A stretch of 64,000 bases of DNA from Gaiellaceae bacterium (GTDB taxonomy: Bacteria > Actinomycetota > Thermoleophilia > Gaiellales > Gaiellaceae): NCBI GenBank assembly GCA_045805985.1, contig JBJMKA010000015.1, forward strand, positions 31,843 to 95,842, read 5' to 3'. Shown here piece after piece: positions 4,714 to 30,834 of the stretch. Position numbers and translations under genes: made by a program. The notes under the pieces were generated by a model that saw only the letters and a list, made by a program, of their open reading frames with translations, was not told where the DNA came from and made no database searches. Each line of letters starts with the position of its first letter. Within the stretch, counting starts at the first letter, position 1.

Positions 4714-5178
4714 ATGAAGCCGACGCTCTTGCAGTACTACGCACCCGGCTGGGGCGTGGGCGAGGTGTGGCTCGACGACGACGGACGCGTCTTCTACAGC
4801 GAGCTCCCCCGTCCGAAACGGCCCCGTCCGGTGTCAGACACGGGTGATGTCCTTGCGGGACGGTTGGCCGCGTTCTTCGCCGGCGCGCCCGACGACTTCG
4901 CCGACGTGCCGCTGGGGATCGACGATGGCTTCTACGGCGACTGCGCCCGGGTCTTGCGAGGCGTGCGGCGCGGGGAGGTCGTCACCTACGGCGAGCTGGC
5001 GGCCCTCGCCGGCTATCCCGGCGCCGCGCGCGCGGCGGGGACGTTCTGCGCCCGTTGCGAGCTCGCGCCGTTCCTGCCCGTGCACCGCGTGATCGCGGCC
5101 AACGGGATCGGGAGCTGGGGGACGCTCGGCGTCGAGTACAAACGACGGCTGCTGGAGCTCGACCATGTCGTTATCTGA
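4714..5178 (+). CDS. Ogt/MGMT-fold protein lacking the acceptor cysteine (alkyltransferase-like)
   Basis: Tail of ORF 4027..5178 from ATG 4714 (MKPTLLQYY). MGMT DNA-binding domain (VTYGELAALAGYPGAARAAG ... LPVHRVIAANG), with PVHRV where Ogt has PCHRV. Confidence 0.8.
   Translation: MKPTLLQYYAPGWGVGEVWLDDDGRVFYSELPRPKRPRPVSDTGDVLAGRLAAFFAGAPDDFADVPLGIDDGFYGDCARVLRGVRRGEVVTYGELAALAGYPGAARAAGTFCARCELAPFLPVHRVIAANGIGSWGTLGVEYKRRLLELDHVVI
4830..4842. repeat. Copy of the GTGTCAGACAC palindrome inside the Ogt-like gene
   Basis: gGTGTCAGACACg, read in frame as V-S-D-T (PRPVSDTGDV). Confidence 0.7.
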
Positions 5179-28608: not shown

Positions 28609-29601
28609 ATGGACCTGGACATCGTCTTTCTCGGCACGTCGGCGAGTGCGCCCACTGCGCGGCGGGCGCCGATGGCGCTGCTCGTACGTCGGGGCGGCGA
28701 CCGCCTGCTCTTCGACTGCGCGGAGGGCACGCAGCGGCAGTTGATGCGCTCGGCGATCGGGTTGCCCGATCTCGAAGAGATCTTTCTCACGCACTTCCAC
28801 GCCGACCACTACCTCGGCCTGCCCGGGATGCTGAAGACGTTCTCCCTGCGTCAGCGCGAGCTCCCGCTCACGGTGTACGGCCCAGCCGGGCTGCGCGATC
28901 TCTTCAAGAGCCTGGGACGGATCATCGGCAAGCTCAGCTACCCGATCGAGCTCGAGGAGCTGCGGCCGGGGGAGGCCTTGGAGCGCGACGGCTACCGGAT
29001 CCTCGCCTTTCCGGTGCACCACGGCGTGTCTGCGGTCGGCTACGTGGTCGAAGAGGACGAGCGGCCGGGCGAGTTCGACGCCACCGCGGCGGACGCGCTC
29101 GGCATCCCGTTCGGGCCCGAGCGCGGCGCGCTGCAGCGCGGGGAGTCGGTGACCTTCGAGGACGGTCGCGTGCTCACGCCGGATGCGGTGCTCGGGCCCG
29201 CGCGTCGCGGCCGGCGCATCGTGATTCCCGGCGACACAGCGCCGGTCGAGACGGTGCGCGTGCTTGCGGAGGGCGCCGATGTGCTGGTCCACGAGGCGAC
29301 GTTCCTCGAGGACGAACGCGATCGCGCGGCCGACACGCTGCACTCGACGGCGCGCCAGGCAGCCGAGGTGGCGCGTGACGCAGACGTCCGCCTGCTCGCG
29401 CTCACGCATGTCTCACCGCGCTACTTCGGCGAAGAGCTCGTGCGCGAGGCGCGCGACGTATTTCCCGCGACCGTGGTGCCCAAGGACTTCGACGTGATCG
29501 AAGTGCCATTCGTGGAGCGGGGATCGCCCGAGTTGATCAGGCGCGGCGCGCGGCCCGAAAAGGTGTCTGACACCGTTCCGCCGGCGGACGTCGCTCTGTA
29601 G
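28609..29601 (+). CDS. rnz: Ribonuclease Z
   Basis: Metallo-beta-lactamase motif HFHADHYLG. Typical N-terminus MDLDIVFLGTSASAPT. C-terminal tail KVSDTVPPADVAL is encoded by a palindrome copy. Confidence 0.9.
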   Translation: MDLDIVFLGTSASAPTARRAPMALLVRRGGDRLLFDCAEGTQRQLMRSAIGLPDLEEIFLTHFHADHYLGLPGMLKTFSLRQRELPLTVYGPAGLRDLFKSLGRIIGKLSYPIELEELRPGEALERDGYRILAFPVHHGVSAVGYVVEEDERPGEFDATAADALGIPFGPERGALQRGESVTFEDGRVLTPDAVLGPARRGRRIVIPGDTAPVETVRVLAEGADVLVHEATFLEDERDRAADTLHSTARQAAEVARDADVRLLALTHVSPRYFGEELVREARDVFPATVVPKDFDVIEVPFVERGSPELIRRGARPEKVSDTVPPADVAL

Positions 29602-29638
29602 CTCGCAGAGGTGTCAGACACCTTTGGTATCAGACACG
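29562..29638. repeat. Three GGTGTCWGACACC-family palindromes at the rnz/aminopeptidase convergent ends
   Basis: 29562-29574 GGTGTCTGACACC, 29610-29622 GGTGTCAGACACC (15-mer with flanks), 29626-29638 GGTATCAGACACG. Confidence 0.9.
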
Positions 29639-30834
29639 AGCTGCCACGCTCCCCCGCGCAACACCGCGACCTCTTCGCCGTCGCGCGTCAGTCCGGTGAC
29701 GGTCACGTCGTCGCTGCCGATCATGAAGTCGACGTGGATCTCGCTCTGGTTGATGCGGTCGTGGTCGGCGTCGCCGACATGCGTTGCGTAGGCGTTACCG
29801 AGCGCAAGATGGCTGGCGGCGTTCTCGTCGAGCAGGGTGTTGAAGAACACCGTGCCGGTCTTGCCGATGCGGCCTTCGCGGTCGACGAGCGCCAGCTCGC
29901 CCAGCCGCTTCGCACCGTCGTCCCTCTCCGTGCGCGTTCGCAGTGCGTCCGCGTTTTTGCCCTGGATGTCGACGACACGGCCGCTCTCGAAGCGAACCTG
30001 GAGGTTGTGAACGACAGAGCCCGCGACGTCGAGCGGCTTGGTGGCGGTCACGACGCCGTCGGCGCGCAGCGGGTCGGGCGTTGTCGTCACCTCCTCGGTC
30101 GGCAGGTTGGGGGCGTGGATCACGCCGTCCACCGTCTGCATGCCGGGCGTCTCCGACCCGAAGCGTGAGGTGGGGAGGAGGCCCACGGTGAGGTCGGTTC
30201 CCGGCCCTTGGAAGCGGATGGCGTCGAAGTGCCGTTCGTTGAGCAGGTTGCCGGCGTCGTGCAGCTGCCGGAGACGCGTGTGCCATGCCGCCGCAGCGTC
30301 GGGCTCGTCGAGTCGCAACACGTAGATGAGTTGCTCCCAGAGCTTCGCCATCGCCGTGTCCTCGTCGAGGCCCGGGTGCACGAGGTGCGCCCATTCCGGC
30401 ACGGCCCAGGGCACGACCGTCCAGTTCGTCGTCCGCGCGTTGATGACGCCGAAGCTCTCCGCATGCCCCGGCAGAGCATCGCGGCCGGCGAGTCCGGGAT
30501 CGATGCCGTCAAGGAGCCCCGGAGGCACCTGCGGCGTGATCGAGATGCGGGCGCCGTGGCCCTCGCCCAGCTCGATGATTCGGCGGCCGTACCAGGACGG
30601 GACGAACGCGAGGGTGTCCGCAGGCGCTCGCTCGAGCCGGATCCGCTTCACGAAGGGGTCGAAGTACCACGGGTCGACGAACTTTGCTCCGCGCTCATAC
30701 GCCTCGGCGGCCACGACCCTCACGAGCGGCGCGGCCCGTGGCTCGGCGACGATCCAGACGATCTGGCCGGGCTGGACGTTCGCGCCGACCTCGACGATCA
30801 ATTTGGCGTAGCGGCTCAGAGTCTCGGCGTCCAC
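29614..30834 (-). CDS. M29 family aminopeptidase (AmpS/PepS-like)
   Basis: Full-length ORF with family-wide similarity (YAKLIVEVGANVQPGQ ..., LLDENAASHLALGNAY). Confidence 0.9.
   Translation of the reverse strand: MDAETLSRYAKLIVEVGANVQPGQIVWIVAEPRAAPLVRVVAAEAYERGAKFVDPWYFDPFVKRIRLERAPADTLAFVPSWYGRRIIELGEGHGARISITPQVPPGLLDGIDPGLAGRDALPGHAESFGVINARTTNWTVVPWAVPEWAHLVHPGLDEDTAMAKLWEQLIYVLRLDEPDAAAAWHTRLRQLHDAGNLLNERHFDAIRFQGPGTDLTVGLLPTSRFGSETPGMQTVDGVIHAPNLPTEEVTTTPDPLRADGVVTATKPLDVAGSVVHNLQVRFESGRVVDIQGKNADALRTRTERDDGAKRLGELALVDREGRIGKTGTVFFNTLLDENAASHLALGNAYATHVGDADHDRINQSEIHVDFMIGSDDVTVTGLTRDGEEVAVLRGGAWQLVSDTKGV

Follow-up and report, generated by a model that had tools for sequence, protein, structure and literature searches.

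Two convergent genes of an uncultured Gaiellaceae bacterium, rnz (ribonuclease Z) and the gene of an M29 aminopeptidase, are both predicted to end in a short peptide that contains VSDT, and both run at their 3' ends into copies of one short palindrome. This raises the question of where the two tails come from. The first-pass annotation had proposed that the palindromes invaded the 3' ends of both genes and rewrote them. The question was addressed in a window of 64,000 nt, which is the whole stretch of DNA that was analysed and to which all coordinates refer unless a contig is named. The genes and the elements at their junction are as follows.

28609-29601, plus strand: rnz, ribonuclease Z, 330 aa; orthologues share homology with codons 1-318, and the repeat accounts for codons 319-330.
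29614-30834, minus strand: M29 (AmpT/PepS-type) aminopeptidase, 406 aa; the repeat accounts for residues 400-406 (29617-29637).
29562-29574, no strand: P1, perfect palindrome GGTGTCTGACACC; in rnz it reads as (K)VSDT, i.e. the G of AAG (K318) followed by GTG TCT GAC ACC.
29575-29609, no strand: spacer of the P1-P2 doublet, 35 nt; it encodes VPPADVAL and the stop TAG of rnz.
29610-29622, no strand: P2, perfect palindrome GGTGTCAGACACC; on the minus strand GGT GTC TGA, the last two codons and the stop of M29.
29626-29638, no strand: P3, degenerate copy GGTATCAGACACG with two mismatches to the consensus; on the minus strand it is the VSDT of M29.
29559-29625, no strand: REPIN-like long hairpin, in which AAAGGTGTCTGACACC (29559-29574) pairs with GGTGTCAGACACCTTT (29610-29625) on either strand and which encloses both stops.

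Both genes are well-defined. They are the only open reading frames at 29400-29800 that are both long and coding-like. The rnz product is a full-length match to NCBIfam TIGR02651 (330.9 bits against a cut-off of 292.95, aa 4-299), with the RNase Z profile ending on it at aa 299-301, and matches the structure 1Y44 at 5e-66. The M29 product matches Pfam PF02073 with 367 bits over aa 4-397, where the profile ends, and the solved AmpT homologue 2AYI at 5e-81, the 2AYI chain ending one residue beyond the alignment. At its C-terminus, rnz reads ...GARPEK-VSDT-VPPADVAL before the TAG at 29599-29601 (predicted terminal peptide ...PEKVSDTVPPADVAL), and M29 reads ...GGAWQL-VSDT-K-GV before a TGA (predicted peptide ...AWQLVSDTKGV). 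The M29 stop, at 29616-29614, lies at the centre of the perfect palindrome 29610-29622, and 12 nt (29602-29613) separate the two stops. The translation of the tails follows from the open reading frames alone. The first-pass readings of the junction agree with these frames: the VSDT of rnz comes from the palindrome at 29562, that of M29 from the degenerate copy at 29626, the codons GGT-GTC-TGA from the perfect copy at 29610, with the TGA at the palindrome centre and the stops 12 nt apart. That a palindrome supplies a stop of the two genes holds for the TGA of M29; the TAG of rnz also comes from the array, from its spacer.

The palindromes at the junction stand out statistically. Five perfect copies of the 13-mer GGTGTCWGACACC are present in the window, against 0.00 expected in 100 shuffles. 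P3 by itself is not significant, as 1.2 matches with at most two mismatches are expected per window, and gains its support from a perfect copy that lies 3 nt away and from its orthology to a one-mismatch copy, GGTGTCAGACACG, in the related locus L038. Another GGTGTCAGACACG copy, at 4830-4842, falls within a coding region; taken with the copies at 3' ends, coding copies are read in the VSDT frame or in the one that gives a stop, and almost never in the Cys-containing frame. The stem formed by P1 and P2 has 16 bp. Predicted RNA folds of 29545-29660 reach -53.1 kcal/mol on the plus strand (z -3.17) and -59.5 kcal/mol on the minus strand (z -3.98). Measured from the stops, the hairpin begins 8 nt past the rnz TAG, and the M29 stop lies inside it. 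Canonical terminators, promoters and Rfam families were searched for in 29300-29900 and none was found. A mir-598 match to Rfam in the same interval was taken as chance (18.4 bits against a gathering score of 69, E 0.51).

Beyond the window, the 13-mer is the core of a large repeat family. This genome (3.56 Mb, 68% G+C) harbors 63 perfect copies, and about 93 copies have at most one mismatch and an A or T centre. Perfect copies range from 0 to 184 per genome in 24 congeners (184 in G011 and 118 in G017) and number at most one in each of 16 genomes from four other families of the order; the 13-mer is genus-restricted, and patchy within the genus. The copies of this genome group into 50 arrays, the prevailing form of which is a doublet with 44-50 nt from start to start (about 48), the first copy centred on T and the second on A. 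At 40-55 nt spacing, 21 doublets are T-then-A and two are A-then-T. The two cores of a T/A doublet, of which P1 and P2 are an example, are exact reverse complements. Single copies extend in about half of the cases to imperfect hairpins of 20-40 nt with -15 to -24 kcal/mol. A position-by-position count of flank complementarity gave no signal, and folding is required to see the stems because they carry bulges.

The core of the family is strongly conserved relative to its diverged flanks. A conserved doublet spacer was sought across the copies and not found, the spacers being poorly conserved, and no fixed, family-wide GTAG or CGTC tag is evident in the doublet consensus. GTAG is present 5' of P2 here, in L038 and in L041, where it is the rnz stop. 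The T-then-A order was considered as a family-wide design and rejected, since G011 and G017 each have six A-then-T doublets against one and two T-then-A doublets, respectively. In G008, most copies form pairs 16-18 nt apart (two palindromes separated by 3 to 5 nt) in both centre orders, and the 48-nt doublet is rare; array architecture is lineage-specific. According to our own crude gene caller, by which 79% of the genome is coding, 16 of the 50 arrays (32%) lie between convergent genes, against a background of 18% of gene pairs, and four (8%) lie between divergent genes, against 18%. One atypical group of six perfect copies, arranged as three T/A doublets 112-114 nt apart, is found at C13:129347-129630 of this genome, in a divergent intergenic region by the same gene calls.

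Candidate mobilising enzymes were found next to copies of the repeat. This genome carries four Y1/HUH transposase genes, one of which, at C6:573230-573775 (181 aa), passes the Pfam Y1_Tnp cut-off (37.6 bits against 23) and has its best NCBIfam match in REP_Tyr_transpos (NF047646), with 64.6 bits against a cut-off of 80, which it does not pass. Its HUH (HYH) and YxxxNP motifs are visible, and gtgcYTGTGTCTGACACCggNcgtg stands on either side of the gene, at 573206 and 573856. This REPtron (C6:573206-573868) lies outside the window; the same structure is present in G012, where a 76% orthologue has flanks identical to those of the C6 gene. In G017, a RAYT-like paralogue (C1 982.6-983.1 kb, in the locus C1:982407-983135) has four pairs of a T-centred and an A-centred palindrome joined by aaaa upstream and one downstream; a palindrome also encodes part of its C-terminus, ...LTRCLTP-stop, this time in the third frame (CLT). 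RAYT-like tyrosine transposase genes with flanking copies are present in three genomes. A survey of 40 relatives revealed several RAYT-like paralogues per genome, with a close C6 orthologue only in G012 and no correlation between the presence of a C6 orthologue and the palindrome copy number. Because copy number, doublets, hairpins, convergent-gene enrichment and RAYT-like flanking occur together, GGTGTCWGACACC is read as the conserved tip of a REP-type repeat, and the system fits the REP/REPIN-RAYT type.

To define where the ancestral proteins end, orthologues were read through to their stops, for rnz from 30 relatives and for M29 from 80 loci. M29 ends WQ[LIV]-stop, at query residue 399, in 69 of the 80 loci, which span Gaiellales and Solirubrobacterales. 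The other 11 mostly stop at that position within the tblastn match, a few end one or two residues later (WAF[AG]-stop, WQLVT-stop), and one match is truncated. The VSDTKGV tail is absent from all 80 loci. The rnz sequence is conserved across the order to about residue 318 (...ERGxPxLxRxGARPxR), orthologue alignments ending at aa 310-326, and beyond it the tails vary freely; genomes without the palindrome have unrelated rnz tails of similar length. The orthologue alignment that the first-pass annotation had suggested as a check accordingly puts the end of homology at residue 399 of M29 and at about residue 318 of rnz. Its estimate that the rnz tail is about 25 aa longer than typical was not borne out: conservation extends to about residue 318, the repeat adds the last 12 aa, and repeat-free relatives are similar in length. 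As judged from these alignments, the last 12 aa of rnz and the last 7 aa of M29 are repeat-encoded.

Comparison of the junction among relatives revealed both an empty site and shared arrays. In many congeners (L004, L007-L009, L012-L015 and L021), the 3' ends of rnz and M29 overlap by 4-42 nt, 27 nt being the commonest length, and the old rnz tail there (e.g. ..SELPGAAA-stop) is read antisense to the final M29 codons. L037, with 84% identity in M29 and 86% in rnz, has kept this empty, overlapping site. The junction carries one to six copies in L036, L038, L041, L039, L040, L005 and L006. The arrays of L038 and L041 are alignable with the one here, in the order P1, 35-nt spacer, P2, spacer of about 34 nt, P3. 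P1 lies at the same position, 13/13 identical, in L036 (genome G018), L038 and L041, and P1 and P2 are 13/13 identical across the array species, whereas the spacer between them is 60-74% identical in pairwise comparisons. In this genome, L038 and L041, P1 is translated as VSDT in rnz, which ends at a TAG that has the same place in all three spacers; its tail is VSDTVPPADVAL here and VSDTAASTEAAP and VSDTTAKTESAP (VSDTAAST.. and VSDTTAKT..) in the sister species L038 and L041.

The M29 side of the array differs between this genome and its relatives by two indels. In L038, the M29 end tgg cag ctg TAG is intact and P3 follows 2 nt later. The sequence gctaca(g/a)ctgcca, which holds the M29 stop (TAG in the M29 sense), is present in L035, L036 and L038; its gctaca is missing here. 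Six nucleotides between AGCT repeats have been deleted here, AGCTAC when read on the plus strand and CTGTAG in the M29 sense, with the in-frame loss of a Leu codon and the TAG. Moreover, the P2-P3 spacer is 3 nt long here against 36 nt in L038 and 34 nt in L041; it is 33 nt shorter, and the next in-frame TAG is gone. A mirror image is seen in G003, G009 and L040, where rnz ends ...LVSDTEGV-stop with the stop centred in the second of two palindromes 16 nt apart.

Two further observations concern the junction in other genomes. A second, unrelated repeat family, with gaacctgattcg, gaaccagattcg and gaacctggttc dyads, is found at the same junction in L002/L036, L003 (in tandem), L035 and L041. Because this unrelated dyad family occupies the same site in several congeners, the rnz-M29 convergent overlap is a hotspot for more than one repeat family. 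In addition, a contig of a MAG labelled 'Burkholderiales bacterium' (JAICUZ010000153.1) carries an rnz-M29 pair with 80% and 65% identity to this genome, and is probably mis-binned.

The analysis shows how both genes are read, to which family the repeats belong, a site without the array, an array shared with relatives, and the indels. We consider it very likely that the entry of a REP array into the gene overlap, together with later indels, rewrote both tails, and that the palindromes are repeats of the RAYT-mobilised type. The invasion claimed by the first-pass annotation is thus supported by the orthologue ends, the empty site in L037 and the shared arrays. In the order of events that we propose, rnz and M29 would have been convergent in the ancestor, with overlapping 3' ends. 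An array of the form P1-spacer-P2-spacer-P3 would then have entered the overlap in the common ancestor of this and at least three related species, separating the genes and severing the old rnz tail. rnz would from then on have read through P1 (VSDT) and the spacer to the spacer TAG, and M29 would initially have retained its own stop. In this lineage alone, a 6-nt slippage deletion between the AGCT repeats would have removed the M29 Leu codon and TAG, and the next in-frame TAG would have been lost with the 33-nt shortening of the P2-P3 spacer, the polarity of both indels being set by parsimony over a few MAGs. Because both TAGs would have been removed in this way, M29 would now run on through P3 (VSDT) and AAA (K) to end at the central TGA of P2. 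The idea that the insertion itself made the tails would hold for rnz and fail for M29, since the array would first have followed an intact TAG, as in L038, and the tail would have come with the later indels.

In the AlphaFold2 model of M29, built with 26 orthologues, the mean pLDDT is 89.4 and residues 402-406 fall below 50, the tail having no alignment depth; the model is consistent with the M29 tail being a floppy appendage. Both tails would be neutral, disordered by-products, presumably tolerated because only 7-12 residues are added past the folded domains. Any function of the hairpin would then lie at the DNA or RNA level, as a RAYT substrate or a 3'-end hairpin, and not in the peptides.

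The same kind of gene ending recurs elsewhere in this genome. By crude gene calls, nine genes end ..GV-stop at the TGA of a perfect copy, and they encode a His_biosynth protein, a HAD hydrolase, GatB, a luciferase-like oxidoreductase, RecN, a second M29 peptidase, an aldo/keto reductase, a ROK kinase and the M29 peptidase studied here; about one perfect copy in seven thus supplies a gene stop codon. VSDT occurs within the last 13 residues of rnz, an ABC-F ATPase, a MoCoBD_2 (molybdopterin cofactor-binding) protein and a membrane protein without Pfam match, as well as of the M29 peptidase studied here. Pfam confirms the repeat-ended genes as real, with domains that end 2-8 residues before the stop. 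Repeat-free orthologues of gatB and recN have their own stops, one or two residues earlier: gatB ends ..KL(xx)-stop without the repeat, with ..KLTG-stop in G003 against ..KLTGV-stop here, and recN ends ..FLASLER-stop against ..FLAAHQQGV-stop here. The recN copy is also present in the sister species G018. Because the Pfam domains and the gatB and recN orthologues end just before the stops, the surviving copies sit tight against the natural C-termini and alter few residues. For the annotation of Gaiellales MAGs, this means that terminal ..GV-stop and ..VSDT.. are to be read as repeat-derived and not as functional motifs.

Alternative explanations of the junction were weighed against the entry of a REP array. 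In the first, the arrangement is adaptive: a hairpin on or within 15 nt of both stops would tune termination or mRNA 3'-end stability, and the outward-facing TGA of the doublet would be a selected, inbuilt stop for both directions. We regard this as unlikely. Both stops do lie within the predicted long hairpin, and in E. coli a REP that follows a stop codon at a distance of less than 16 nt causes ribosome stalling and reduces translation (Liang, Rudd & Deutscher 2015, as summarised in PMC12306157); by analogy, the hairpin near the stops could stall ribosomes here. A canonical terminator is nevertheless absent from the junction, which is moreover empty or occupied by other repeats in close relatives, arguing against a conserved requirement. 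The 13/13 conservation of P1 and P2 in three to four species against 60-74% in the spacer would fit selection, as would the nine genes that stop on the palindrome TGA, but a stop is irrelevant in intergenic DNA, where most doublets lie. The T-then-A order (21 against 2) would present the TGA form first to a gene from either side, but this bias is lineage-specific, G011 and G017 showing the opposite.

Taken further, the T-then-A doublet would be a bidirectional 'stop codon plus hairpin' cassette that makes 3'-end insertions self-terminating and whose hairpin tunes the termination and mRNA stability of both genes, to which we likewise give only a small chance. If it were true, a gene would from either side meet GGTGTCTGACACC first, which gives a stop in one frame and a harmless VSDT in another, and the element could colonise overlapping convergent gene ends.

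Less probable still, the palindromes could be operators of a dimeric regulator or sites of a nucleoid protein, with their overlap of gene ends incidental. A perfect 13-bp dyad whose core is strongly conserved against diverged flanks would suit such a role, and so would the six-copy array in a divergent intergenic region (C13:129347-129618). The arrays as a whole, however, favour the space between convergent genes (32% against a background of 18%) over that between divergent ones, where they are scarcer than the background (8% against 18%). Nor would a binding site be expected to number 0-184 copies within one genus and near zero outside it, to form tandem arrays and inverted doublets, to come and go at one junction among close relatives, or to flank RAYT-like genes.

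It is very improbable that the tails are ancestral coding sequence that merely resembles the repeat, or is its source, without any invasion. Repeat-free orthologues with the same C-termini, which would argue for such an origin, were sought: none was found for M29, and for rnz a single resemblance came from a distant congener, L017 (genome G022, with no perfect copies), whose product ends ...QRESDTTPPA-stop, compared with VSDTVPPA here. At the DNA level (gagagcgatacgacgccacccgca), that tail is 12/24 identical and encodes Ser by AGC instead of TCT, unlike the palindrome, and about 20 other congeners have unrelated tails. Because the array gives VSDTAASTEAAP and VSDTTAKTESAP in the sister species that share it, with other residues after VSDT, VPPA is recent, and on this sequence comparison we judge the L017 likeness to be chance. 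The 13-mer is, besides, an exact copy of a 63-member family, and M29 ends WQ[LIV]-stop elsewhere (69 of 80 loci). Finally, an assembly or binning artefact is hardly credible, for although assemblers can be misled by repeats and this MAG is in 20 contigs, the one concerned is 105 kb long and the same array occupies the same junction in independent MAGs of other studies (L036, L038 and L041).

The preferred reading, entry of a REP array and later indels, places this locus among known repeat systems. The selfish palindromic repeats of Rickettsia (Rickettsia palindromic elements, RPE) and Neisseria (Correia/NEMIS elements) insert in frame in coding regions, where a stop-free frame yields short peptide additions. 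Those elements are 100-150 bp long and often internal to the protein, whereas here 13-bp cores lie at extreme C-termini. They are further precedents for the present case (background in PMC3733652). A close likeness is to the REP/BIME/REPIN elements with RAYT (TnpA_REP) of E. coli, Pseudomonas and Stenotrophomonas. Shared with these are short repeats that form hairpins and number from tens to hundreds, a location mostly after gene ends and between convergent genes, a coming and going among close relatives, inverted doublets folding to long hairpins, and Y1/HUH genes flanked by copies (REPtron). The differences are that the host is a genus of uncultured soil Gaiellales (Thermoleophilia), that strong conservation is confined to the 13-bp tip, with variable stems and with doublet spacers that, unlike those of classical REPINs, are poorly conserved, that no GTAG/CGTC tag was seen in the family, and that the transposase falls below the NCBIfam RAYT cut-off. 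In geometry, the junction also resembles the ribosome-stalling REPs, as these are summarised in PMC12306157, with a hairpin 8 nt past the rnz stop and the M29 stop inside it.

Gene ends formed by such repeats have a direct precedent in the GTAG-tagged REPs, which supply a TAG stop to flanking ORFs and also occur inside ORFs (Di Nocera et al. 2013, PMC3733652). As there, the copies here overlap real gene 3' ends and give a stop and a few C-terminal residues, in about a tenth or more of the copies. Here, however, the stop is not the terminal GTAG tag but a TGA at the centre or loop of the palindrome, and the two convergent genes of this locus share a single array. REPs that supply stops and residues have thus already been described (PMC3733652), and no new mechanism is added here. 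In summary, the locus extends REP/RAYT-type elements to Thermoleophilia and offers a clean stepwise case of selfish hairpin repeats remodelling C-termini, from empty site to array, stop lost and new stop captured. Compared with the known systems, what is new is the host lineage, the stop in the palindrome loop instead of a terminal tag, and the use of one array by two convergent genes, for which the order of events can be reconstructed.
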